From IMG/VR virus record IMGVR_UViG_3300013368_000005, positions 32,001 to 96,000 of that record: a stretch of 64,000 nt of DNA. One strand, given 5' to 3'. Shown here piece after piece: positions 2,353 through 60,508 of the stretch. Each line of letters starts with the position of its first letter. Positions within the stretch are counted from its first letter, which is position 1. Source of the stretch: a virus. Lineage: Duplodnaviria; Caudoviricetes. The position numbers were made by a program, and so were the translations under genes. The notes beneath the pieces are model-generated. The model was not told the DNA's origin and made no database searches. It worked only from the letters and a program-made list of their open reading frames with translations.

Positions 2353-3675
2353 TTACATATCTTCTTCTATAGTATACTCTTCTAGTACTTCATCCACAGA
2401 TTCTTCTTCTGGATTTTGAATATTATAGTATACAGGTTCTAAATAACTGATCATTTCTTTTATAGGCATTTCCGAAATGTTTATAAAATCATCCCTCAGT
2501 GATAATGCTAATATCCTTACCTCTGCCTGTGCTGCACTATCAGTTCTGAGTTCTAAAAACTTAATGAAACTTTTAAATGTAAATGTCATATATAAAGATG
2601 TAGTGCTATTATTAGGCAAATATGCTCTTGCATCTTCTTTTAATAATGCCTTATTTTCTGTTAATTGAGGATATATATTCATCATAATATCACCCAATTC
2701 TTGAAGCGTAAACATTTTGTATGATTTAGCAGAAGTGGCTGGGATATCAAAAGATATTTTATATTTCTTTGTGTTATCATATTTCTCAGGTTTAAATTTA
2801 CCAGGTGAATTAAATTTAAATTCACCTGAAGAATAATCTACATATCTTTGTGATAATTGAGTTATTCCAACCCTGTGTCTTGTTAATTGTTGAGATATTA
2901 TTCTAGATACATCTTTTATTAAAATAGTAATTGAACACATGCTAAGAATATCCCTTTTTGTGAATATATCTGGAATTACATCTCTTATTTTATATAACGG
3001 ATCAGCATTCAATATATTATAACTATCTCTTATTAATGGTTCAAATCTTTGGGTTATACCTAATTCTCTCTCCGAAGGTTCTATAGAAATTTTACTTTGT
3101 AATTCCCCTTCATTTAGTATCCAATCATCTGGTTCTGTATCCAATGGAAATTTCCTCTGATCCATTATACCAGCTTCTATAAAGTCCATAAAATAACAAC
3201 TACTTGTACCATATAATAAATTTAATATTTCCCTGGATATTTTATTTTCTGCGTTCTGTATTTCCCTAAAGATATGTTTGTATGCCCTAATACTCCCTCC
3301 TATTAAAAGATATCCTATACCGTCTTTTTCCTTATATTTAGTTTCCAGATATCTGCATACATCTAATACTTCAACTAAATCTTCAGACATATCTTTAGAA
3401 AATTCCAATAGCATAACAATATTAGAATGTTCTAAAATAGATTCATGTCCTGATTTTAATCTAGTAGCTATATATTTAGCTTTATTTTCATAAGTGTCTT
3501 TATTATCCTTATTATAACATATTTTGCATGCATCATGTACTAAATTTACATGATCATTCATATGTATAATAGCACCTTTTACTATTCCTGTTAGTTTACT
3601 CTCCTCTTTATTTTTATTAAAAATCCTATTAAATATTGCTTTGATATTATTTTTATTCATTATCCTTACCTCCAA
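2353..3675 (-). CDS. thyX: Flavin-dependent thymidylate synthase ThyX with an extra internal segment
   Basis: SGHESILEH, SRIISQQLTRHRVGITQLSQRY (RHRx7S motif), EDARAYLP and LRTDSAAQAEVR. Confidence 0.92.
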   Translation of the reverse strand: MEVRIMNKNNIKAIFNRIFNKNKEESKLTGIVKGAIIHMNDHVNLVHDACKICYNKDNKDTYENKAKYIATRLKSGHESILEHSNIVMLLEFSKDMSEDLVEVLDVCRYLETKYKEKDGIGYLLIGGSIRAYKHIFREIQNAENKISREILNLLYGTSSCYFMDFIEAGIMDQRKFPLDTEPDDWILNEGELQSKISIEPSERELGITQRFEPLIRDSYNILNADPLYKIRDVIPDIFTKRDILSMCSITILIKDVSRIISQQLTRHRVGITQLSQRYVDYSSGEFKFNSPGKFKPEKYDNTKKYKISFDIPATSAKSYKMFTLQELGDIMMNIYPQLTENKALLKEDARAYLPNNSTTSLYMTFTFKSFIKFLELRTDSAAQAEVRILALSLRDDFINISEMPIKEMISYLEPVYYNIQNPEEESVDEVLEEYTIEEDM

Positions 3676-32271: not shown

Positions 32272-32862
32272 ATGAATATGCGAGAATTACTAATCACTAT
32301 TACTGAAAATGAAAGTAGTGGAGAAAATATAAATATTAATACGGAATTGGAATTTTCAGCAAATATAAGAAGGAGATATGAAGATATGAAGAACAATTGT
32401 AAAAGATTTGAAGAAAATTTAGGTTCTATATATGAAGATATGAAATGTATGCTATGTGATAAACAAAGTCAATGCGATATTAAATATAGAGAAGCTTTAC
32501 TCGAAAAAAGAAATAATGAGGCTTGTAGACCTTGTACAAAATGCAGAGAATTACTTCAATGTAAAAAATATAAATATGGAAAAAGATGTATAGGTCAATA
32601 TGAACTATCCCATGAATATAATGAGTGTGCACGTTGTAATTGTAGATTTAACTGTATACAGTGGTCAGGCGAACAAGTATCATTTAAATGTATCAAAGAT
32701 TTAATAGCAGTTAGAGATGGACAAGAATATAGATTCTTTAAAAATAAAGATTACACTTTTATCAAAATATGTAATACCTTGATTTATGAATATACTATAA
32801 TTACAATAAATCAAAATAATTTAAAAGAATATCTAATTCCTATATCACAAGATTTAATATAG
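32272..32862 (+). CDS. Cys-rich hypothetical protein
   Basis: Three CxxC-x4-C-like clusters (CMLCDKQSQC, CTKCRELLQC, CARCNCRFNC). Confidence 0.65.
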   Translation: MNMRELLITITENESSGENININTELEFSANIRRRYEDMKNNCKRFEENLGSIYEDMKCMLCDKQSQCDIKYREALLEKRNNEACRPCTKCRELLQCKKYKYGKRCIGQYELSHEYNECARCNCRFNCIQWSGEQVSFKCIKDLIAVRDGQEYRFFKNKDYTFIKICNTLIYEYTIITINQNNLKEYLIPISQDLI

Positions 32863-48822: not shown

Positions 48823-49194
48823 TTATTGTTTATCTTCTAATTCTTTTTTCATTATATCATCTATAAGTGGTTTCTTAGCTCGATATACTTTTATCCAAAA
48901 TGCTAAATTTTTTATTTTACCTAAAACTTCAAATCCTAACATACCTCCAACAAAGCATGGAAGTATAAATAGTTTCATAGATATTTTAGAGAGTATAAAT
49001 TCACTTAACGAAAATAAAATTATAGATGATACTGTTGTCGATATCAATATTCTACTTATTTTTACCTTAGTGTCCTTTTCAGTAAAAGTGTTATAGGTGT
49101 CTTTAATTATAGCCCCCAATAAACTAAAAACAAATATAAATAAAAAATCCATTATACTTGAAATAAGTGCTACTTTGTCAATTACCATCCCCAT
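48823..49194 (-). CDS. Holin-like membrane protein (3 TM, charged C-tail)
   Basis: FSLLGAII / ISTTVSSIILF / CFVGGMLGFE; late transcription unit. Confidence 0.6.
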   Translation of the reverse strand: MGMVIDKVALISSIMDFLFIFVFSLLGAIIKDTYNTFTEKDTKVKISRILISTTVSSIILFSLSEFILSKISMKLFILPCFVGGMLGFEVLGKIKNLAFWIKVYRAKKPLIDDIMKKELEDKQ

Positions 49195-49220
49195 TTCACA
49201 TCACTCATTTCTTTACTAAA

Positions 49221-50201
49221 TTAATCTTGTTTTGGAATTTTATTTTGTAAACACCCTGAGCCTATAATCACAAATATACCTATTATTGTAGATTGTGCCA
49301 TAGCTGCAGCGTTTCTTTTCTGATTTTCTATTATATCATTACGCAAATCATCAATTTGATGCTTGTATTCATATATATAAGACAAATAAGGTTGTAATGC
49401 ATCTAATATATTAATTCTTTGAATAATAATAATCTTAAAATTATCTATTTTGTACCCTAAGCTGTTTAAATCTTTAGTTCCAAATATATCTCCTTCTTTA
49501 GTCAAATATAGAGGTACTAATAATTCATAAGAGCTTAGAGCTGTTATTCCTTCTTCTTTATAGATTTTAAGTAGTTCCTTTATATTCATAGAACTAATAC
49601 ACTTATGTGGATTATTAGATCCAATTGGCTCCCAGAATATAAACTCATTTTCAAGATTGGTATTTTTTATTGCATTTATAGCTTGTTCGGTTAAAGCTGT
49701 ATTATGGACTACACTTTTCATTTTACTCCAACTCATATATTGAGTTTCTATATCTTGGTTTGCATCAAATTGGTATCCAATAGATCTATTCCAGAGAATG
49801 TTATCCATTGAAGCAACAAAAACTTTATTTGACATAGAATCTTTATTTATATAGGTATCGGATAACATCTCATCAAATATTTTTGTTAATTCACTATCAG
49901 TACTAGGGTTACTGATATCATACTCTAGATCATTTAACTCTCCTGCATATCGATTTAACATTGTTTGCTGAATATCATTTGTTCTAATTGTTAATGAGTC
50001 TTCAGCTCTTCTTATATTTTCAAGTAGAATTGTAGAGATATAATTCTCCATATCACATTCTACAGATTCTATTATATTATTATATTTAATTTTCATTATT
50101 TCATATTCATTATATTGCTTATATCCAAATACAGTCACACATAGCAATATTGAAAGTGTTGACATAGCTAAGATTTTCGATATGACATTTTTTTTCATCA
50201 T
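49221..50201 (-). CDS. Membrane protein with N- and C-terminal TMs and a large extracytoplasmic domain
   Basis: Hydrophobic ends; late promoter at 50222-50233; co-transcribed with the holin-like gene. Confidence 0.6.
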   Translation of the reverse strand: MMKKNVISKILAMSTLSILLCVTVFGYKQYNEYEIMKIKYNNIIESVECDMENYISTILLENIRRAEDSLTIRTNDIQQTMLNRYAGELNDLEYDISNPSTDSELTKIFDEMLSDTYINKDSMSNKVFVASMDNILWNRSIGYQFDANQDIETQYMSWSKMKSVVHNTALTEQAINAIKNTNLENEFIFWEPIGSNNPHKCISSMNIKELLKIYKEEGITALSSYELLVPLYLTKEGDIFGTKDLNSLGYKIDNFKIIIIQRINILDALQPYLSYIYEYKHQIDDLRNDIIENQKRNAAAMAQSTIIGIFVIIGSGCLQNKIPKQD

Positions 50202-50279
50202 AATTCGTCACCTCCTTTTATTATATTTATGTTATACAAAAAATGGAAGCAGGAATATATATTCCTGCTTCTAATATTA

Positions 50280-51221
50280 TTAACCAAATCTATTTTCTGA
50301 ATTACATAAACATCTTCCGTTGCAATTACATGTGCCATTTCCTCTGGTGACGCATGAACATAGTTCATAAACATCACATGTACATCCAGATGTTGGGGTT
50401 CTACTCACACACATACAATCTGTATTACATGTACATGCTTCAATTGTTGTTCTACTAACACAGTTACATACATTATCTGCATTACAAGTACAATCTGGAG
50501 AAAATGTTCTATCAACACATAAACAACCATGTTGTATACATATTGTCTCTGCTGTTCTGTCAACACAGGTACAACCAGTATCCGAATTACTAGTGCATTG
50601 AGTGCCTGTTCTAGTGACACATAAGCAATTAGATGGACAATCACCGCCAGTTACTTCCCCTGAAGTTCTTGAGTTACAATCACAATTTGTTATTCCTACT
50701 CTCGATACGCATGTACATAAAATATTAGAATCACATGTGTCAACTGCTGTTCTTGATACACATGAACAAGTATTATCATTACAACTACAAGAATATCCTG
50801 TTCTAGCAACACATGAACATGAGACATTCTCAATACATTCTAATTCTGATGTTCTAGCCACACAACTACATATATTACTTGAACAAATATCGCCTGATGT
50901 TCTTGCAACACAATTACAAGATGTATGAGCATCACAGGAGAGTTCTGAAGTTCTAGTAACGCAATTACATGTAGTATCTACATGTGAATCACATGTTAAT
51001 GGCATTATATTATCCATAATATCCTCTATATCACCTATAGAGACAGTATTATCTTTTAATGCAAAATTATCTATATGAGCTATACAAGTTCCAAGGTTTC
51101 TTTGATTATTCATATCATCTAATAAATCTTTTAATTGACCTAATGAATTATATTGAGGAGGATTTGTATAACCCTTTTTTATTTGTAATAAGTTTTTTAA
51201 TCTTATTAAACTCTTATTCAT
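50280..51221 (-). CDS. Cys-rich repeat protein with about 13 CxCxxR[T/V/G] units; candidate radical SAM substrate
   Basis: ~75 aa non-repetitive N-region, then CNCVTRT, CNCVART, CSCVART x2, CSCVSRT, CTCVSRV, CDCNSRT, CLCVTRT, CTCVDRT, CLCVDRT, CNCVSRT, CMCVSRT, CSCVTRG. Confidence 0.85.
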   Translation of the reverse strand: MNKSLIRLKNLLQIKKGYTNPPQYNSLGQLKDLLDDMNNQRNLGTCIAHIDNFALKDNTVSIGDIEDIMDNIMPLTCDSHVDTTCNCVTRTSELSCDAHTSCNCVARTSGDICSSNICSCVARTSELECIENVSCSCVARTGYSCSCNDNTCSCVSRTAVDTCDSNILCTCVSRVGITNCDCNSRTSGEVTGGDCPSNCLCVTRTGTQCTSNSDTGCTCVDRTAETICIQHGCLCVDRTFSPDCTCNADNVCNCVSRTTIEACTCNTDCMCVSRTPTSGCTCDVYELCSCVTRGNGTCNCNGRCLCNSENRFG

Positions 51222-51237
51222 AATTTATCCTCCTATA

Positions 51238-52011
51238 TTATTTATATAAAATAGTCCATCTAAAGCCACCAACAAAACTTCCTGAATTACCTACAAATAT
51301 ATTTGTAGCATCAGCTCTAATCCATGTTTCGCCTAAATATCCTTGAGGATTTTCAATAGGCATAATCATTATATTTGTTGGTGTAAATGATAATCCATGG
51401 GCTATAGTAACTTCATTATTACTTCCAGCAAAATTTGCTATACCACTTTTATCTGTTATTTTTTGACTTAATTTTTCTGCTATTGAAGTAGCAAAATTAG
51501 GATCTTCTCCTAATGCTTTAGCTAATTCAGATAATGTATTTAATGTCTCAGGCGAAGAATCAATTAAATTAGTAATTGCTGTTTCTACCCCTTCAGTTAT
51601 TTTAGCATCTGTTTCCGTTTTATTATAGTAATCAACTAAAACGTTTGCTATTATCTCTTCTACTGTTAATTGAGGTTTGTTTAGATTAGGTACACCTTTA
51701 AATGCAATAAAATTAAATACTGTATCTATACCTGTAGTCCCCCAATCATTTCCTAAAGACATTATAGCTGTACCTTCTGGATTTATTGTGTATGACGTTT
51801 CAGGAATATATTTACCAGCAATAAATACAAATAATAAATCATAATTAATATTAAAATTTTCTATACCAATATTTACACTAGGTGCAGTTCCTGTAATAGT
51901 AATATTATTTTTTCTATATCCTATAATACCAGTAGCAGCAGCTTTTTCAAATTGCATAAATAAATCATTGCTTATTTCGTGACCTGTTACTTTTCCTCCT
52001 ATACTAGCCAT
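51238..52011 (-). CDS. Tail fibre-like protein
   Basis: LIDSSPETLNTLSELAKALGEDPNFATSI is a common tail-fibre segment; YYNKTETD repeat; C-terminal VTIAHGLSFTP; late promoter at 52038-52049. Confidence 0.8.
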   Translation of the reverse strand: MASIGGKVTGHEISNDLFMQFEKAAATGIIGYRKNNITITGTAPSVNIGIENFNINYDLLFVFIAGKYIPETSYTINPEGTAIMSLGNDWGTTGIDTVFNFIAFKGVPNLNKPQLTVEEIIANVLVDYYNKTETDAKITEGVETAITNLIDSSPETLNTLSELAKALGEDPNFATSIAEKLSQKITDKSGIANFAGSNNEVTIAHGLSFTPTNIMIMPIENPQGYLGETWIRADATNIFVGNSGSFVGGFRWTILYK

Positions 52012-52096
52012 ATTATTTCACTCCTTCATTTATATATTATTATAATGTTAAAATTGGGTAGGATTAATCCTACCCAACTATACTTATTATATAATA

Positions 52097-53005
52097 TCAT
52101 ATTTGTAATAGTTGTTGATAATAATCATATACTTTTTTTCTCATATTATATACTATGATATTACTCTCTTCTAATGTATGTTGTGTTTTGATAATTTTAT
52201 AATTTAAGTCTTTAGATGATGTATAATCATTACTATTTCTACCATAAGTTTCGCCTATAACTTTACCAGATGAATCTTTAACATATGTTCTGATATCATT
52301 TTTAGGAGGTGGCACTAGAAAATCTGATATTTGTATACCTTCAAGTTTATTTGATATAATATCATGAGCTAAATCATGCATTTCAGACAGATATCTATTT
52401 AAATAATTTTCATCTACAGACATTGTAGATTCTATAATACCTATATTCATTCTACACCTTATGCCTTTTTCATGTAGTTCATGAATACTTTCTCTTAAAA
52501 AAGCTATATTATACGGATGAGTAACAATATGCATATTGTAATTAATACCATTTCTATTTAACTTATCTATATTTTCTATTACTTTATCAAATGTATTCTC
52601 ATGTGTATCCTTAAATACTCTAAGCTGATTGGCAATTTTATTACCGTCTAAACTTATAGAAAATACTATATTTTTATTCTCTTTAAGAAATTTAATGTGT
52701 TCATCTTCTAATATAGTGCCATTAGTTGTAATATATATTGTATTTACTATATTATTAAATGAAGTGTTTCTTTCGGTAAGTTCTATCCATTCATATGCAC
52801 TTTTAATATTATCAAAAGCTAACATTGGTTCTCCACCTAGAAATTCTATATTAAATCTTTTATTATGACCAGCGAAATTGTATATATTATTTATTAAGTC
52901 TTCGATTTCTTCTTTACAATATATAGATTCTTTATCTTTTTCGTAACAATATTTACAATTACAATTACATTCCTTGGTTACATGAATGACATAAGTTTCT
53001 ATCAT
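52097..53005 (-). CDS. Radical SAM protein without a SPASM domain
   Basis: CNCNCKYC (CxxxCxxC), FLGGEP, ITTNGT and SISLDG; no C-terminal Cys cluster. Confidence 0.92.
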   Translation of the reverse strand: MIETYVIHVTKECNCNCKYCYEKDKESIYCKEEIEDLINNIYNFAGHNKRFNIEFLGGEPMLAFDNIKSAYEWIELTERNTSFNNIVNTIYITTNGTILEDEHIKFLKENKNIVFSISLDGNKIANQLRVFKDTHENTFDKVIENIDKLNRNGINYNMHIVTHPYNIAFLRESIHELHEKGIRCRMNIGIIESTMSVDENYLNRYLSEMHDLAHDIISNKLEGIQISDFLVPPPKNDIRTYVKDSSGKVIGETYGRNSNDYTSSKDLNYKIIKTQHTLEESNIIVYNMRKKVYDYYQQLLQI

Positions 53006-53018
53006 AATTATTCACCAC

Positions 53019-54557
53019 CTAGAGATTTTTTATTATTTGCGTAAGAGCTTCAGGTATCAATTCTGTTACACTAGTATACATATCTTCAATTTTATTATTT
53101 AAGAATTGCTTTTCTAAAATTAATCCAGTATATTCTTCGATAGTTAAACCTTCTTCTTCAGCACGTTCTAATATTTTATTATAAGTAGATTTAGCTAATT
53201 TTATTGTAACAATATTATCTGATTTAATCTCAACTTTATTAGCTGATATCATATCTGCTTTGAGTGTAAACTTATTATTAGTCTCTTCGCTATCTATTAA
53301 ATTAAATTGTGTACCTCTTGAATCACATAAACATGCTGGGTTGTCTGGATTATTTCCTATGGTTGAACTTATTTTATTATCTTTTCTATCTAATACTCCC
53401 AATTTATAATACTCCTCTACTTCTTTTTTTATATATGATTGTATTTCTTTTTCTATTTTACTCATTTGACATCTATACCCTCTAGATACAGATAATATAG
53501 AACCATTTTCACAAAGATTTTCTGCTATACATCTATAACAATGATAGCAGTCACAATCTGGATCATCTATTTTACAACTTAAATCATTATTATCATACTC
53601 TACGAATAATAATCTTTTTTGATCGTCTATACCATCAAATATATTACCTATTATATATTGTCTTTCTGGATCATTAAAATATATATGATGACAAGGTGAA
53701 ATATCTCCATTGGCAGTAATAGTAATAAAACTATTACCAGCTCCACAAGGTTTATTCGAAAAATCACAAGCATTAGATAAACTTCTGTCTAATGGTGCAT
53801 AATTTCTTATTTCATTTAAATTACCTTCCTTTTCTACTCTATTTAATATATAGTCTGCTATTTTGCCTAATTGTTCTTTATACATATTAACATCTTTTTG
53901 AGTCCAATCATTACTATGAATAGGCATAAACCATATATGTTTTAAACCCCAATCTTCTCTAAAGAATTTATAACTTTCAAATAAATATTTCATAGAAAAA
54001 TCATTTAAACATCCATGTATGCTTAAATTATCAGGTTTATTTTTGAAAAGATTTTTCCATTTAGGGATATTCTTTTCTACTATTTGAAAACTACCTTTTT
54101 TATTATGTGTTATTCTAAAAGCATCTTGAACTTTTTGAATACCATCTACAGATAATTGAACAGTAAGATTAACGTTATATATTCCTTTACTAAGTATTCT
54201 TTCTAATTCTGTTGTCAGTATGGTACCATTTGTTATCATATTCATAGACACGGGTATCTTTGTTATACTACTTATAGCACTAGCTTCATCGATTATAAAT
54301 TCCAATATCTCTGGCTCTAATGTTGGCTCTCCTCCAAATAATAATATATTTACCCGTTGCTCTCCAAATCCATTATCTATATTTTTTTTCGCATTGTCAA
54401 ATAAGAATTTAATACCTTGATTAGCAACTTCATAAGACATTTTATTCTTATTATGTTTTTCGAAACAATATGAGCAAGCTAGATTACAATTTTCTGTAAC
54501 TAGAAAACTTGCTGCAGTGGGTTGTAAAATCTTTTTAATGTCGATTATTTTTATCAT
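53019..54557 (-). CDS. Radical SAM/SPASM peptide maturase-like protein with a C-terminal extension
   Basis: CNLACSYC, FGGEP, ITNGT, LSVDG; SPASM CGAG...GDISPC...C..CDCYHCYRC...C; late promoter at 54577-54588. Confidence 0.93.
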   Translation of the reverse strand: MIKIIDIKKILQPTAASFLVTENCNLACSYCFEKHNKNKMSYEVANQGIKFLFDNAKKNIDNGFGEQRVNILLFGGEPTLEPEILEFIIDEASAISSITKIPVSMNMITNGTILTTELERILSKGIYNVNLTVQLSVDGIQKVQDAFRITHNKKGSFQIVEKNIPKWKNLFKNKPDNLSIHGCLNDFSMKYLFESYKFFREDWGLKHIWFMPIHSNDWTQKDVNMYKEQLGKIADYILNRVEKEGNLNEIRNYAPLDRSLSNACDFSNKPCGAGNSFITITANGDISPCHHIYFNDPERQYIIGNIFDGIDDQKRLLFVEYDNNDLSCKIDDPDCDCYHCYRCIAENLCENGSILSVSRGYRCQMSKIEKEIQSYIKKEVEEYYKLGVLDRKDNKISSTIGNNPDNPACLCDSRGTQFNLIDSEETNNKFTLKADMISANKVEIKSDNIVTIKLAKSTYNKILERAEEEGLTIEEYTGLILEKQFLNNKIEDMYTSVTELIPEALTQIIKNL

Positions 54558-54645
54558 AAATATCTCCTCCCTTGATTATAATAATGTTTGTCCCATGATA
54601 TAATAATAAAAATTACAAGATACCAATTAAGGTATCTTGTAATGA

Positions 54646-55494
54646 TTAGCAAGTAGCAACCCAACTTGTTCCATTATAATATTTCATAATACCATTTTTC
54701 CAACCTAAATTATAAGGTTGAGGTACATTTGATGTTACCCATGAACTCCCATTCCATACATGACAACCAGATCTATAAGTTGCATCCCAGCCTTCTTCTG
54801 CTTGTAAATCCGATTCATAACTTCCATTTAATGAAGACACTGCAAATTGAATACCATCATAAGCACCAGCAGCACTATTAACAGGAAAGTCATATCGATT
54901 ACTTACAACAGTACTTTGATAACTCCAATTGGCATTCCATGTTCCAGTAGAATGATTATAATATCTAGCATATACTTTATATCCAGTTGCTCCAGATGCT
55001 CCAGTAAAGGTAACTCTCATTTCTTCTCCTTTATTGAATAATCCTGAAACAGATACGTTTGATGGTTTGTTTGGAATTGTTTGAATTTGATCTAATGTAA
55101 CAGTTTTTCCTACACTCATCGTTCCTATCCAAACACCTGTATAAGTAATTTCTATAGCAAATGTTGCTGCTAGATCTACTGAACGAGATCCATCTGAATT
55201 ATGAGGCACTGTAGCTGTTCTAGTAACTAATACATTTTGCCAAATTTGACTATCATCATTTCTATCTGGAACAGATTTACTAAAATTTTGCGTACTTCCA
55301 TTTATTGTGGTTGTTCCATTTTTTACTAATCCCCATGTACTTACAGAACTACTTTCCATTATTACTGAAATTGTTACAGAGGATGAATTAGTAGCTTGAT
55401 TTGGAGTTGATGACCATTGAATACCTAATCTAACATTATATCTCTCTAAAGCAGAACCACCATAATACCCACTCCAAAATATTCCACTAGCCAT
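54646..55494 (-). CDS. Tail or receptor-binding-like protein (DUF859-like N-domain plus FN3-like domain)
   Basis: NQATNSSSVT...VPHNSDGSRSV...LDQI; PNKPSNVSV...GATGYKVY; WNGSSW / YNGTSW. Confidence 0.7.
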   Translation of the reverse strand: MASGIFWSGYYGGSALERYNVRLGIQWSSTPNQATNSSSVTISVIMESSSVSTWGLVKNGTTTINGSTQNFSKSVPDRNDDSQIWQNVLVTRTATVPHNSDGSRSVDLAATFAIEITYTGVWIGTMSVGKTVTLDQIQTIPNKPSNVSVSGLFNKGEEMRVTFTGASGATGYKVYARYYNHSTGTWNANWSYQSTVVSNRYDFPVNSAAGAYDGIQFAVSSLNGSYESDLQAEEGWDATYRSGCHVWNGSSWVTSNVPQPYNLGWKNGIMKYYNGTSWVATC

Positions 55495-55509
55495 AGATAT
55501 ACACCTCCT

Positions 55510-57090
55510 TTATATCCAACTTATCCACACATCTCCAGTTTTAGGGCTAGATGGTGCAGTTTTTTGTATCTTTATTTTACTATCTAATGTAGTTATTGTA
55601 TTATTTATAGTATTTACTTTACCATCCATTTCAGTTTTAGTATAATAACCACCAAATTTGTTATTTATAGTGGTTATCTTACCATCTATTTCACCTTTGG
55701 TATAATAATTACTTAGACTATTGGATAAGCTAGATATACTATTATTTATAGTATTTATCTTACTGTCTATATTCGCTTTATTATAATAATTATTAGCAAG
55801 ATTATCAGATAAGCTATCTATACTATTATTTATAGTATTTACTATATTATCTATCTCTAATTTAGTATAATAATCATTAAATTTTTCTATAGCACCAGTT
55901 ATCATATCTTGTATTTCTTTAGATAATGCTTCCCATGGTATAGAGCCAGGATCTATTATAGAGCCATCCACTCCTACTTCTGATATAGGAACGTTAACTA
56001 ATCCTATAATATTAAATACTGTTGGGTTTTCTGGTGTTCCTTCCCATATTTCTGTTTCAGGACATAATATATTAATACCATCTTCTGTAATTGTATAATC
56101 TTCATTTTCTGCTAAAAATACACTATTTTTGAATACTAGTAAAAAGTCAACACCCTTTCTAAATTTAATTCCTATTTCAATATAGTTTACATTTTGTGTT
56201 ATAGCTACAGTATTTTTTCTTGCTACAAATCCTCCATTAATTCCATCTTCTCCAGTAGCTATTACAATCCATCCTGTTCCATCAAACTGCTTTATAGCCT
56301 TAGCAGAAGTATCAAACCAGATGTCTCCTCTTATTCTATCATATGGTTCACTAACACTAACAATATATCTATATCCATTTACCATATCAGCATCTATTAC
56401 GCTATCATCTGATATAATTTGTGCATAATTAAATATATATGTTAATCTTTCATCTTGATTAATTACAGGATATGATTGAGAAAAAATAAGATTATAGTCC
56501 TCTGCAATAACATAATCTTCTGTTTTTACAAGTTCATCATTTCGTAATACAACCATTGGAAATTTAGTAAAATCATAACCAACAAAAGGCACAGGTATTC
56601 TAAATATTCTCTGAGCTGTTCTTTCAACAAAATAATGTTCCATTTGAGTTTTTAACTCAAATCTTTTTCCTTCTTTAATCATATCGTCTAAAACACTTGA
56701 TAATGGGGTACCATCATCATTAAATACTTGGCTTGTTAATGTTCTGGGAGCAGTAGCTATACCATTTTCCTCTATTGTCGCTGGAACTAGTTCTCTTAAT
56801 ATCGCACCACCTAATATAACATCATCTGTTATTCTCATCCAAGAATATTTAAATTTATAAGTCATATTTGTTTCTTTTACAAGATATATCATAGATAAGT
56901 CTGGTGTTTCAATTTGTTCTCTTTCATATTCAGTTGCTAATATGATAATATTTTCAACTAGAACTCTTTCAGCATTGTTATTATCTACGAATATTTCATT
57001 TGTGTCTGTACATTCAATAATCTGACCTGTAATTATAGGTATTTTTACTAATCCAGGTTTTAATGCAGATATATATTTTATTATAGTCAT
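55510..57090 (-). CDS. Tail fibre protein
   Basis: Four YY[T/N]KxxxD repeats; GDIWFDT...FDGTGW; C-terminal APSSPKTGDVWI; late promoter at 57120-57131. Confidence 0.8.
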   Translation of the reverse strand: MTIIKYISALKPGLVKIPIITGQIIECTDTNEIFVDNNNAERVLVENIIILATEYEREQIETPDLSMIYLVKETNMTYKFKYSWMRITDDVILGGAILRELVPATIEENGIATAPRTLTSQVFNDDGTPLSSVLDDMIKEGKRFELKTQMEHYFVERTAQRIFRIPVPFVGYDFTKFPMVVLRNDELVKTEDYVIAEDYNLIFSQSYPVINQDERLTYIFNYAQIISDDSVIDADMVNGYRYIVSVSEPYDRIRGDIWFDTSAKAIKQFDGTGWIVIATGEDGINGGFVARKNTVAITQNVNYIEIGIKFRKGVDFLLVFKNSVFLAENEDYTITEDGINILCPETEIWEGTPENPTVFNIIGLVNVPISEVGVDGSIIDPGSIPWEALSKEIQDMITGAIEKFNDYYTKLEIDNIVNTINNSIDSLSDNLANNYYNKANIDSKINTINNSISSLSNSLSNYYTKGEIDGKITTINNKFGGYYTKTEMDGKVNTINNTITTLDSKIKIQKTAPSSPKTGDVWISWI

Positions 57091-57178
57091 AATAACTCCT
57101 CCTTATTTAGTTTACTTATTATTATTATGTTTGCTGAAGACAAATAGAGTGTATATAATATTATATACACTCTATTAT

Positions 57179-57904
57179 TTATCTTATAGAATTTAATAGT
57201 TTTATCAAAAATGTCATATCTGTCCGTTTAACTATTTCTGATGTACTCTTCTTTGTAGGTAAAGTTCCTCTTATAAATTGAGTTAATGGTATCATTGCAT
57301 CTATAAATTCATTATAATAATTTATATGCCAGATACAGGTGGAATCTATACCTACAAAAGAAAATGCTGTTAAATACTTATATATCCTAAATTCATTTAT
57401 TTTTTGTCTAAGTGAGATTACATCGTTTATAGTAATGTGTGTTTGTTCACCTATCTTCTTTTCTTGCCATGTAAAATTAGCTGGTCTAGGTTTTTGATCC
57501 TGTTGAATATTACACTGACATGCTATTTGACACATATCTTGACAATAGCTTTGACAAGTAGTTAAACATGCTTTTTCACATGTAAATTGACATAACATTT
57601 GACAATTTTCTTGGCAATTTAATTCACAACCAGTTTGACAAGCCGTTTGACAAACAGTTTGGCAAGTTTGACATCCTTGTCGTTCACATTGGCATACTGA
57701 CAAACATGTTGCTAAGCATGCTTCATTTACTAATTGACAAGCATTTTCACATTGATTGCATTCTGCCTCTATGTCCATACACATACATGTATTCATACAA
57801 GCATCTGAACAACTGCTATTTGCTAAAGTTACGTTATTAGAATCATTCAAGAAGTCAGGAATAGTTATTTCAGTACCTTTTAAAAAATCGCTCATTTCGA
57901 TCAC
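57179..57904 (-). CDS. CxxxC-repeat protein fused to a C-terminal globular domain; candidate radical SAM substrate; probable ATG at 57895
   Basis: ~30 aa leader, then CSDACMNTC...CQTVCQTACQTGCELNCQENCQMLCQFTCEKACLTTCQSYCQDMCQIACQC, then a ~100 aa RPANFTW... domain. Its GGAGGTG SD overlaps the rSAM stop codon. Confidence 0.85.
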   Translation of the reverse strand: MIEMSDFLKGTEITIPDFLNDSNNVTLANSSCSDACMNTCMCMDIEAECNQCENACQLVNEACLATCLSVCQCERQGCQTCQTVCQTACQTGCELNCQENCQMLCQFTCEKACLTTCQSYCQDMCQIACQCNIQQDQKPRPANFTWQEKKIGEQTHITINDVISLRQKINEFRIYKYLTAFSFVGIDSTCIWHINYYNEFIDAMIPLTQFIRGTLPTKKSTSEIVKRTDMTFLIKLLNSIR

Positions 57905-59157
57905 CTCCTGTTAAATTGAGTTTTAAATAATTCATTTGACTCACCTGCTAACGTATTCATTATATTTATCGATGTATCTAAGCATATATTATAAAATTTA
58001 CATAATATTTCTGGAACTATTGTTAAATCGCCACAGGAAAAATAATTGTTTATAGAGCAATACCCATCACATATATTATGGAGTCTGCATGTCTTACACC
58101 TTTTTGAATCAGAACACCTGACTTTTTTTACATCAAACGAGTTTATAATTTCCCATCTTTTATCATTATAGATTTCAGTGAATAAATTACCTATTATAAA
58201 TTTATCTCCATTTTCTCTGTTTCCTACCATTTCTTGGCAAGAATATATTTCTCCATCGGGACCTATTGATGCAAATCTATTAGAACCTAATCCGCATCTA
58301 CCATATGCAGGTGCATCTGTAGCATTTCTAAACGATGCAGTTTCATTAAATCTATTAATCTTTTTTATATTACCAAATGCATAATCAAATTGCGAAATAG
58401 ATATATCTCTACCTTCTCTTATTAATTCTATATACCAATTAGCAACTTCATTGATCGCTATTACTAGATCATTAACCTCTTGATTAGTCCATTTAGTAAA
58501 TACATTAACAATAAAAAATATATTATTATATCCTTTTTCTATAGCAAATTTACAATTATGCAATAATTGTTTACAATTATCATGATCTAATGTCATTCTA
58601 AAAGTCATATTAGGATTTAATTTTAGAGCTTTAGGGATATTATTTATTATTAAATCAAATGATGATTTTCCATTATGAAGAGGTCTATTTAAATCTTGTG
58701 TAGGTTTATCTCCATCAATACTGATCATAATTCCAATATTATTATCTTTTATAAATTGTAATCTTTCCTCATTCAATAATGTACCATTGGTCGTCATAGA
58801 TAATTGAAAATTATTATTACATTGCTTTCTAATATATTTAGTCAATGGTACAATTATTTCATCCCATTTGAGCATGGGTTCTCCACCAAAGAAATTGATA
58901 CTAGGAATGTCCCCTTGTATTTTAGAATTTTCTATAATAAAATCTACAGCTCTTTTTGCAGTATCATAAGACATTTCTTTAGCATATTGATCTATAAAAC
59001 AATACTTACATTTAAGATTACATTTTTGTGTAACATTGAGAAATATGGAAGTTATTAATGGTAAGTCTCCATCTTTCCATATTTGCTCTACTGTTCTAAA
59101 ATTATTATTTTCGCATTGTTGATTTACACATTGTTCACAATTCATATTAATTACCAC
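57901..59157 (-). CDS. Radical SAM/SPASM peptide maturase-like protein; probable ATG at 59145
   Basis: CNLKCKYC, FFGGEP, MTTNGT, ISIDG; SPASM CGLG...GEIYSC...CKTCRLHNICDGYC...C. Confidence 0.94.
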   Translation of the reverse strand: MVINMNCEQCVNQQCENNNFRTVEQIWKDGDLPLITSIFLNVTQKCNLKCKYCFIDQYAKEMSYDTAKRAVDFIIENSKIQGDIPSINFFGGEPMLKWDEIIVPLTKYIRKQCNNNFQLSMTTNGTLLNEERLQFIKDNNIGIMISIDGDKPTQDLNRPLHNGKSSFDLIINNIPKALKLNPNMTFRMTLDHDNCKQLLHNCKFAIEKGYNNIFFIVNVFTKWTNQEVNDLVIAINEVANWYIELIREGRDISISQFDYAFGNIKKINRFNETASFRNATDAPAYGRCGLGSNRFASIGPDGEIYSCQEMVGNRENGDKFIIGNLFTEIYNDKRWEIINSFDVKKVRCSDSKRCKTCRLHNICDGYCSINNYFSCGDLTIVPEILCKFYNICLDTSINIMNTLAGESNELFKTQFNRR

Positions 59158-59207: not shown

Positions 59208-60413
59208 TTATGAGAAATAAGCACCACCAAGTGTAATCCATCCAGAAGTTGTTTTTAATTTTATTACTTTATTTATACTATCTATCCATAACTCATTTTC
59301 TAAAGCATTAACAGGTTCCATAGTCTGAATGTAATATGTCGGTTTCTTAGATAGCATGGCATCAACTTCAGATTTTGTATATACCATATTAGTATCTACC
59401 TTAGAAGCTATCTGTTGGATTATAGTGCTTGACATATTGGGATTACTTGCCAACATATTAGAAAGTTGGGTCAAAGTAGCTAAATCTGTTGGGGAAGCAT
59501 TGATTATACTTTGAATTAAATCTTGAGTTTCTTGTTTTGTATAAGTATTATATCCATCAGCCTTTGATGTAAAGTAAGTTATTTGATCTTCGGTAACAAA
59601 TTTGTTATACATATCTTGAACTATACTCTCTGCTCTGATAGCTATATCATCAGCAAGTTTTATTGATGTTATAGATTTATCTGCATAATTTTTGGTTGTA
59701 AGAACTGTATTGGCGTTTAAATCATAAAATCTAGTATAAAAAAATATAAATAATGCAAACTCTCCTTGATTTAGGGCATCATTTGGGTTTTTAATTACTA
59801 AATCATCGCCTTTTACTTCATACTTTCCACTAAAATTATAGCCTCTAACAATTACAGCCATCTTATCTTGAGCCAAATCATAATTAGCTATCGGATATGG
59901 TATTTTTATTATCATCTGTTTATCTCTAGTAGCATGTACATAAATAGATTTACTAGCTGTAACTGCTATTTTATCAATAGCCTCTAAGGATTCTGCTAAT
60001 GTACTTCCATCTTCCATAATTACAACACTTGATAATGTTGTAGGAGCGATACTCTGCTCCATTGCAGCATAAAGTCCTTTTGTAGAATAAGTACTTTGTA
60101 AGAACTCATCTGAAGAGAATGCTGTTGTTAAGAAATCTTGTTGATCTTGTATAGTAAGCCATATTAAACCATCGTGCTTGTATACATTACCAGTTTCTTT
60201 AACATAATAAACTTTAGTCATTGACGTATATTGTAATAGGTCTTTATCAGCTTCGGTTGATAGATATATTATTTCATTTAATATTATACGTTGTTCATCT
60301 GATAGATCAAAAAAAGATTCTTTTGTATCAGTGCAATATATTATTTGATTTGTAAATAATCGAGTATTTCCTAACATATCTCGTATTATTTCTTTATAAC
60401 TAACAAATGACAT
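59208..60413 (-). CDS. Tail fibre protein, paralog of 55510-57090
   Basis: QIIYCTDTKE, APTTLSS, YTKQET / YTKSEVD, ASPTDLATLTQL, NELWID; late promoter at 60439-60450. Confidence 0.8.
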   Translation of the reverse strand: MSFVSYKEIIRDMLGNTRLFTNQIIYCTDTKESFFDLSDEQRIILNEIIYLSTEADKDLLQYTSMTKVYYVKETGNVYKHDGLIWLTIQDQQDFLTTAFSSDEFLQSTYSTKGLYAAMEQSIAPTTLSSVVIMEDGSTLAESLEAIDKIAVTASKSIYVHATRDKQMIIKIPYPIANYDLAQDKMAVIVRGYNFSGKYEVKGDDLVIKNPNDALNQGEFALFIFFYTRFYDLNANTVLTTKNYADKSITSIKLADDIAIRAESIVQDMYNKFVTEDQITYFTSKADGYNTYTKQETQDLIQSIINASPTDLATLTQLSNMLASNPNMSSTIIQQIASKVDTNMVYTKSEVDAMLSKKPTYYIQTMEPVNALENELWIDSINKVIKLKTTSGWITLGGAYFS

Positions 60414-60508
60414 ATTAAATCCTCCTTTATAAATTAATTAATATTATGTTATCTTTATGGATAGATACAAAGAATAACACTTCTTGAATTAACAAGAAGT
60501 GTTATATT

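Follow-up and report, generated by a model that had tools for sequence, protein, structure and literature searches.

We analysed a 64,000-nucleotide stretch of phage DNA (the window), which covers bases 32001-96000 of the single 186,590-bp contig of IMG/VR record IMGVR_UViG_3300013368_000005 (26.6% G+C). A minus-strand block running from 63 kb to 50 kb interleaves tail and fibre genes with three genes for radical S-adenosylmethionine (radical-SAM, rSAM) enzymes and two genes for Cys-repeat proteins, as described in the initial annotation of the sequence. Within the whole genome, these three rSAM genes are the only open reading frames (ORFs) with a CX3CX2C motif. They had been read as a single three-enzyme system. 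Our comparisons instead divide them between two separate systems, A and B, each associated with its own Cys-repeat protein and probably acting on proteins of the tail fibres. The genes (lengths in amino acids, aa) are as follows:

50280..51221, minus strand: system A target, 313 aa, recognised by its Cys pattern and a family alignment
51238..52011, minus strand: tail-fibre protein with a conserved C-terminal domain (CTD), 257 aa, matching PHROG tail and tail-fibre families
52097..53005, minus strand: system A short rSAM enzyme, 302 aa, matching Pfam Radical_SAM, with intact CX3CX2C and GGEP motifs
53019..54557, minus strand: system A rSAM enzyme with a SPASM-like domain, 512 aa, matching Pfam Radical_SAM and SPASM
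57179..57904, minus strand: system B target, 241 aa, recognised by its Cys spacing and HMMER relatives
57901..59157, minus strand: system B rSAM/SPASM enzyme, 418 aa, matching Radical_SAM with E 1.5e-18

System A has four parts: a fibre protein ending in the CTD, a CxCxxRT protein, a SPASM enzyme and a short SPASM-less enzyme. The 313-aa protein contains 47 Cys residues and 14 CxCxxR units, 10 of which read exactly CxCVxRT. Its family is built from a conserved 75-aa helical N-terminal domain (N-domain) with invariant R41, C46, H49 and S61, followed by the repeat array, and the protein closes with the conserved sequence CxCNGRCxCNSENRFG (CxCNGRCSCxSExRF across the family). No family in Pfam, NCBIfam or PHROGs covers the protein or its relatives, a tblastn search of 50,697 phage records with the 313-aa sequence gave no match, and its AlphaFold2 (AF2) model was unusable, with a mean predicted local distance difference test (pLDDT) score of 42. 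The fibre protein encoded just upstream carries the CTD in its last ~65 aa (51241-51435), and this domain accompanies every system A cassette. Alignment of 17 CTD sequences showed G-x-LGE-x-W to be invariant. The protein atlas pointed to a likeness between the CTD and H-type lectin or Gp53-like_C domains, which was left unconfirmed by Pfam scans of the 17 CTDs and by a PDB profile search.

A word-based protein search returned a sole relative of the 313-aa protein, P0001. On its contig, a fibre gene with the window's CTD is followed by the Cys-protein gene and then by four rSAM genes, two of which encode enzymes 43-44% identical to the 512-aa and 302-aa enzymes of the window. Further loci were found by scans seeded with alignments of P0001 and the window sequences. 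The set occurs in three IMG/VR contigs, in two metagenome-assembled genomes (MAGs) from a Tissierella sp. and a Clostridia bacterium (one of the IMG/VR contigs and the Tissierella locus represent a single prophage), in a 223-kb IMG/VR phage contig with two Cys proteins, and among 25 metagenome contigs. The short rSAM has 25 full-length metagenome relatives, which co-occur with the other three parts. All four parts were present in 11/11 of the metagenome contigs with enough flanking sequence and in 18/18 such loci altogether (6 + 11 + 1, representing 17 distinct phages or prophages). In each of these 18 loci, the set is encoded within, and inherited together with, tail or fibre genes.

The system A loci range from 22 to 52% G+C and sit in quite different tail modules, some siphovirus-like (tape-measure protein (TMP)-Dit-Tal, minor tail protein) and some P2-like (baseplate J/I, then an H-like fibre N-terminus). 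The CTD-bearing proteins vary from 79 to >781 aa, with N-terminal parts that are unrelated between loci and a CTD that is conserved, which indicates that CTD and cassette move together. When closely related loci were paired, the enzymes were 86-98% identical and the N-domain 93-95%, and the repeat part was only 70-72% identical and contained indels (repeat against enzymes, 72% against 98% and 70% against 86-93%). Among the relatives, those with a named source belong to Clostridia-class MAGs or a fermentation metagenome, which would fit oxygen-sensitive enzymes and a use for non-reducible cross-links. Some loci (L001:2180-6360, L025:8391-11434, and L035 and L036:9238-12870) contain two to three extra rSAM genes beyond the conserved pair. 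The 223-kb contig (L088:5161-11783) encodes CxCxxR proteins of 202 aa and 335 aa (54 Cys) together with two CTD-like genes.

System B pairs the 418-aa enzyme with the 241-aa protein. The called start of the latter at 57895 gives 238 aa, and its gene abuts or overlaps the rSAM gene, for which gene callers elsewhere use the ATG at 59145 (414 aa). The 241-aa protein has 27 Cys, including 12 consecutive 4-residue spacings from Cys 81 to Cys 129, and its spacing agrees with the earlier observation that the two Cys-repeat proteins differ in periodicity. It consists of a 30-aa N-terminus, ~100 aa of C[QE]xx repeats (26 Cys, 18 of them followed by Q or E) and a 105-aa phage-specific C-terminal domain. 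By eye, neither this protein nor the 313-aa one or its family begins with a hydrophobic stretch resembling a signal peptide. Pfam gave nothing for the 241-aa protein and NCBIfam nothing at E<=1 (a chance-level match only); in PHROGs, its C-terminal domain corresponds to phrog_37329, a family of unknown function. AF2 modelled residues 140-241 with pLDDT 84-97 and the repeat at ~50. Foldseek searches with the whole model found nothing in the PDB and only uncharacterised phage proteins in BFVD, and VIA-align returned only generic helical bundles, aligned to the low-confidence repeat.

An exhaustive HMMER search with the 241-aa protein gave 136 relatives, including the full-length P0003 (42% identity), P0015 and P0086, and the full-length relatives share the same architecture of repeat and C-terminal domain. 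An rSAM gene lies beside or near the C[QE]xx-repeat gene in 5/5 informative relatives. In L010, L012 and L013 it is directly upstream and encodes an enzyme 36-40% identical to the 418-aa enzyme. No hit came from scanning IMG/VR with the 418-aa enzyme as a single query protein. The initial annotation had staked its proposal on conserved linkage of the rSAM genes to Cys-repeat and tail genes, and that linkage held throughout, in 18/18 system A loci and 5/5 system B loci.

The C[QE]xx repeat is also found inside much longer proteins. It occupies hundreds of residues of a 1163-aa protein (with a weak Phage-tail_3 match) encoded two genes after a tape-measure gene, and it recurs within a 1422-aa protein of a baseplate V/W/J module. 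Both fusion loci have an rSAM gene and a GT9 glycosyltransferase gene a few genes downstream, and the fused repeat may also be glycosylated. In these two loci, at L011:14858-15814 and on the P0004 contig, the GT9 gene is next to the rSAM gene or one small gene after it. Relatives that keep the C-terminal domain and have FN3 in place of the repeat have no rSAM gene nearby, and one repeat-less relative sits just before amidase and holin (lysis) genes. The rSAM gene thus follows the repeat rather than the C-terminal domain, and the C[QE]xx repeat appears from these comparisons to behave as an exchangeable stalk module.

Each of the three enzymes gives a match to Pfam Radical_SAM (E 1.5e-11 to 1.5e-18), and the cysteine layouts, together with a Pfam SPASM match for one enzyme, agree with the initial annotation in giving two of them a SPASM-type domain. 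The 418-aa enzyme has the auxiliary cysteines in the canonical SPASM layout, C-x18-C, then C-x2-C-x5-C-x3-C, then further Cys. They take a variant form in the 512-aa enzyme, with seven conserved Cys including C-x4-C-x2-C, which Pfam SPASM matches exactly at its cut-off (21.5 bits). The 302-aa enzyme has only C30 and C184 outside its CX3CX2C region and no auxiliary-cluster cysteines. By blastp, the enzymes and their orthologues form three clades (A-SPASM, A-short and B), with identities of 34-72% within clades and 25-28% between them, and each clade is tied to one substrate type. The enzyme adjoining every CxCxxRT protein is 43-53% identical to the 512-aa enzyme of the window. A role for the rSAM enzymes in DNA or nucleotide modification was considered and rejected, since they accompany the Cys proteins in phages of unrelated types.

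Extensions of the enzymes also carry Cys motifs. In the 512-aa enzyme, the SPASM-like domain is followed by the conserved motif GNNPDNPACLCDSRG (53313-53357) and a helical tail. The motif, GNNPxNPxCLCDSRG, is present in 5/6 aligned A-SPASM orthologues and duplicates the CxCxxR unit of the substrate. Its possible roles are those of a pseudo-substrate, a site of self-modification or a metal site. In L001 the arrangement is reversed, with a truncated SPASM enzyme (392 aa) and a short rSAM (L001:4233-5432, 399 aa) that bears a C-terminal extension with its own CDC motif and helical tail. The presence of the extension on the short enzyme in this one locus suggests that the two system A enzymes work together. 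The 418-aa enzyme begins with MNCEQCVNQQC, a CxxCxxxxC motif (59113-59145), and a CxxCxxC-type motif opens 3/4 of the B enzymes, the others being those of L010 and L012 and the exception that of L013.

Hidden Markov model (HMM) searches, as called for in the initial annotation, did return maturases of the expected kinds. PapB (NF047865) was the best-scoring family for all three enzymes and their orthologues. The 418-aa enzyme scored 227.8 bits, the 512-aa enzyme 202 and the 302-aa enzyme 93.9, where the cut-off lies at 340. The top matches of the SPASM enzymes also included the SCIFF maturase, QhpD and the CXXX-repeat maturase, and no curated cut-off was reached; for the CXXX-repeat, PapB and SCIFF families, this was true of enzymes and targets alike. 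A RiPP (ribosomally synthesised and post-translationally modified peptide) recognition element (RRE) was absent from the rSAM enzymes. The closest solved structure for all three is CteB (5WGG), to which the 418-aa enzyme aligns with E 1.9e-30 from CteB residue 95. Across the phage enzymes, the alignments start at CteB residues 95-99 and only 15-35 residues precede the core, which means that the N-terminal RRE, placed according to its position in CteB (PMC8326336), is missing.

The resemblance to PapB and its substrate PapA, which yield freyrasin, extends beyond the score. By profile, PapB is likewise a short rSAM/SPASM enzyme that starts at the core without an N-terminal RRE, and PapA, like the window targets, has many regularly spaced Cys. 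The phage systems differ in their scores (94-228 against 340 bits), in their location in a tail module and in system A's second, SPASM-less enzyme, which PapB/PapA does not have. PapA is built of CX3D units, whereas the 241-313 aa targets of the window are made of CxCxxRT or C[QE]xx units, in which Asp does not recur regularly at +4. For CteB/CteA (SCIFF, TIGR03974), the likeness lies in the structure and in the acceptor, as CteB joins Cys to Thr by a gamma-thioether (PMC8326336) and unit A has a nearly invariant Thr; the differences are the RRE of CteB and scores of 152.6 and 111.6 bits against a cut-off of 425.

The bacterial CXXX-repeat system (TIGR04115, TIGR04119, TIGR04117, PF27846) shares with the system B target a Cys at every fourth residue. 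Its maturase profile TIGR04115 scores 118.2 bits for the 418-aa enzyme, 127.7 for the 512-aa enzyme and 93-144 for orthologues, against a cut-off of 350. Among target-side matches, P0031 hits TIGR04117 at E 0.013, and P0004, P0005 and a 523-aa neighbour have faint or weak precomputed PF27846 matches. Unlike the CXXX targets, the system B repeat belongs to a protein that ends in a phage-specific C-terminal domain. QhpD/QhpC provides a precedent for rSAM/SPASM thioethers in a structural protein subunit rather than a secreted peptide (PMC8326336), with QhpD at 139 bits against a cut-off of 453; QhpC, however, is a cellular subunit with three bridges, not dozens of repeats. Known thioethers of this kind join Cys to Asp in freyrasin, to Thr in CteA, to Asn in NxxcA and to Asp or Glu in QhpC (PMC8326336).

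The cluster genes appear to be expressed with the structural genes. The initial annotation had placed them downstream of late-type AACA-N6-TA promoters, a motif that we take to correspond to AR9-type late promoters. Across the whole window the motif is not enriched (78 found against 93 expected). It is concentrated in the cluster, with 7 copies in the 582 nt of eight minus-strand gaps against 0.3-0.5 expected (P ~4e-8), and every gap copy lies 20-40 nt 5' of a start codon. These motifs and the terminator-like hairpins, together with the remaining tail genes, are listed here from upstream to downstream:

60474-60505: terminator-like hairpin just upstream of the unit 1 motif
60439..60450, minus strand: promoter-like motif AACATAATATTA opening unit 1, 26-37 nt upstream of the start at 60413
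59208..60413, minus strand: tail-fibre protein, 401 aa, matching phrog_23820 (E 9e-15) and phrog_1197
57143..57176: palindromic terminator-like hairpin ending unit 1
57120-57131, minus strand: promoter-like motif (AACA-N6-TA) before the 526-aa fibre gene
55510..57090, minus strand: tail-fibre protein, 526 aa, leading gene of unit 2, with PHROG tail/tail-fibre match
54646..55494, minus strand: tail protein, 282 aa, matching phrog_372 tail protein (E 6e-18)
54612-54643: terminator-like hairpin after the 282-aa tail gene
54577-54588, minus strand: promoter-like motif (AACA-N6-TA) before the 512-aa rSAM gene
52038-52049, minus strand: promoter-like motif (AACA-N6-TA) before the 257-aa fibre gene
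50246-50271: terminator-like hairpin after the 313-aa Cys gene

Combining the promoter-like motifs with the terminator-like hairpins gives three predicted transcription units. Unit 1 would contain the 401-aa fibre, the 418-aa rSAM and the 241-aa repeat protein; unit 2, the 526-aa fibre and the 282-aa tail protein; and unit 3, the 512-aa and 302-aa rSAM enzymes followed, after a further promoter-like motif, by the 257-aa fibre and the 313-aa Cys protein. The same promoter-like motif is found in the cassette units and before other structural genes, and units 1 and 2 open with fibre genes. The neighbours of the rSAM and Cys genes match PHROG tail and tail-fibre families, and the N-terminal 230 aa of the 401-aa fibre are paralogous to the 526-aa fibre (27% identity over 233 aa). 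Pfam and PHROG searches of the main cluster genes found no transporter or peptidase family, as the initial annotation had noted, and none was seen among the called genes with a Pfam record in the related loci. Right after the terminator of the 313-aa gene (window 48823-50201, minus strand) lie genes for a 326-aa protein with hydrophobic ends, which had no family match, and a 123-aa membrane-like protein. Both may be lysis or membrane proteins, as found after the cassette in prophage relatives.

The contig encodes split multisubunit RNA polymerase beta-type subunits, and the closest isolates for one virion protein (~25% identity) are the Fusobacterium JD-Fnp phages and Bacillus AR9/PBS1. These features place the source phage, on sequence grounds, in a large AR9-like line. 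The earlier label of 'jumbo' phage fits this affiliation, although at 186.6 kb the contig is slightly under the 200-kb limit. Elsewhere in the window, another Cys-rich ORF (32272-32862, plus strand, 196 aa, 15 Cys) lies outside the tail cluster. A 440-aa protein (2353-3675, minus strand) has a thymidylate synthase family match confined to its C-terminal third, which is of interest in an AR9-like phage because the lineage may use modified DNA bases.

We favour the reading that the cluster holds two independent maturation systems for tail-fibre-associated proteins, likely catalysing thioether stapling, and put its probability at about 60%. That the enzymes act on these Cys proteins is very likely, given the strict co-inheritance of enzyme clade, substrate type and tail context. 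In system A, the 512-aa SPASM enzyme and its 302-aa SPASM-less partner would modify the 313-aa CxCxxRT protein, the helical N-domain of which would dock on, or work with, the CTD of the 257-aa fibre. The cross-linked array with its fast-evolving spacers would then form a distal part of the fibre, resembling an accessory adhesin such as gp38 of T2. In system B, the 418-aa enzyme would modify the C[QE]xx repeat of the 241-aa protein, a putative stalk module between the N-terminus and the phage-specific C-terminal domain. Thioether stapling is the most likely chemistry because the closest characterised enzymes, PapB, CteB and QhpD, form Cys-to-side-chain thioethers. The bridges would run from Cys sulfur to a side-chain carbon, where the acceptor would be Thr or Arg for unit A and, for unit B, Gln or Glu. 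Thioethers of this type would be non-reducible staples, suiting virions in reducing, anaerobic habitats. A virion location for repeat B is supported directly by its fusions to tail-module proteins; for protein A, the case consists of gene position, the obligatory CTD partner and the pattern of divergence.

Several observations weigh against this interpretation. The CTD occurs without the cassette in 11/16 IMG/VR loci (with the cassette in 5) and on proteins of 79-150 aa, so the dependence is one-sided, with the cassette requiring the CTD and the CTD able to occur alone, and by this comparison the CTD is not a dedicated partner. A search for a fused form of fibre and CxCxxRT protein, itself a weak search, found none, and AF2 modelled neither repeat confidently. 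The enzyme scores are below cut-off and the substrates lack the CX3D units of PapA, so the chemistry could be different. The leader/core pattern of ordinary RiPPs likewise pairs a conserved N-terminal part with a hypervariable repeat. Finally, modification and virion presence are for both Cys proteins deduced from the genes.

The doubt about chemistry leads to a reading in which the proteins belong to the fibres but carry something other than thioethers, such as bound metal or Fe-S clusters, formylglycine installed by an enzyme like the anaerobic sulfatase-maturating enzyme (anSME), epimerised residues or methyl groups. Metal-thiolate proteins typically have CxC motifs, anSME ranks among the matches (E 1e-22 to 1e-27), the SPASM-less partner is without a known counterpart in thioether systems, and every score is under its cut-off. 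We nevertheless consider this unlikely. PapB, SCIFF/CteB, QhpD and the CXXX maturase outrank anSME for all SPASM enzymes, and anSME itself (TIGR03942) reaches only 74-97 bits against a cut-off of 349. The sulfatase motif C/S-x-P/A-x-R is absent from the repeats, unit A having Arg at +3 or +5 from Cys rather than +4 and no Pro/Ala, and two or three dedicated radical enzymes, all inherited together, would be superfluous if the Cys arrays only bound metal. It is also possible to accept the chemistry and doubt the destination. Fibre loci are a common site for accessory genes, and the Cys proteins might be large RiPP-like products outside the virion, released at lysis as a bacteriocin, signal, anti-defence or superinfection factor. 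The enzyme families are indeed RiPP maturases, the targets mimic a leader and core, no fused form was found for system A, and one phage genome paper annotates a copy of such a maturase as an 'antibiotic synthesis' gene (PMC12801897). Yet targets of 194-369 aa are far above RiPP precursor size, and no peptidase, transporter or immunity gene was present at the loci examined. System A always lies beside the same CTD though the fibres are unrelated, in other phages the system B repeats are fused covalently into tail-module proteins, and the window genes share transcription units and the promoter-like motif with fibre genes. Taken together, these points make a free product quite improbable.

Tail-fibre assembly proteins are usually encoded directly downstream of the fibre gene, which is where the system A target gene lies, and the Cys-repeat proteins could in principle be intracellular chaperones of fibre assembly, absent from the finished virion. 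We give this very little credence, as neither enzymatic maturation nor a fast-diversifying repeat region is expected of a chaperone, and the system B repeats occur as modules inside long tail-module proteins.

If maturation of fibre-associated proteins is accepted, a more specific and more tentative picture can be drawn, which we regard as possible but hold with less than even confidence. The T2/S16 gp38-type adhesin is a small separate protein encoded after the fibre gene, with a conserved N-terminal attachment part and a repeat scaffold bearing variable loops. System A resembles it by analogy only, with no sequence relationship, and the gp38 scaffold is glycine-rich and is made without enzymatic maturation. 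The CxCxxRT proteins might be a new class of accessory adhesin, with thioether-locked hypervariable loops docked, maybe covalently, on a portable fibre-tip domain, and the C[QE]xx repeat might be a thioether-laddered stalk that replaces FN3 or collagen-like spacers, both in phages of anaerobic habitats.

Covalent maturation of virion proteins is known from few cases, such as the isopeptide bonds of the HK97 capsid, and our full-text literature searches returned no account of phage fibre proteins matured by rSAM enzymes. The system A and B sets recur beside tail genes in many unrelated phages, and it is probable on this comparative evidence that phages use a bacterial Cys-peptide cross-linking chemistry on parts of their host-binding fibres. 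Radical-SAM peptide maturases are currently treated as natural-product enzymes; if the proposal is true, RiPP chemistry would extend to the structural proteins of viruses, and the orphan rSAM genes in many phage genomes would be explained. It would also give annotators a rule for recognising such genes, offer biochemists two new protein families with clear enzyme-substrate pairs, and suggest a disulfide-free stabilisation of host-binding tips in reducing environments. Should the accessory-adhesin and stalk picture be true as well, RiPP chemistry would be a general tool of virion construction and host-range evolution.

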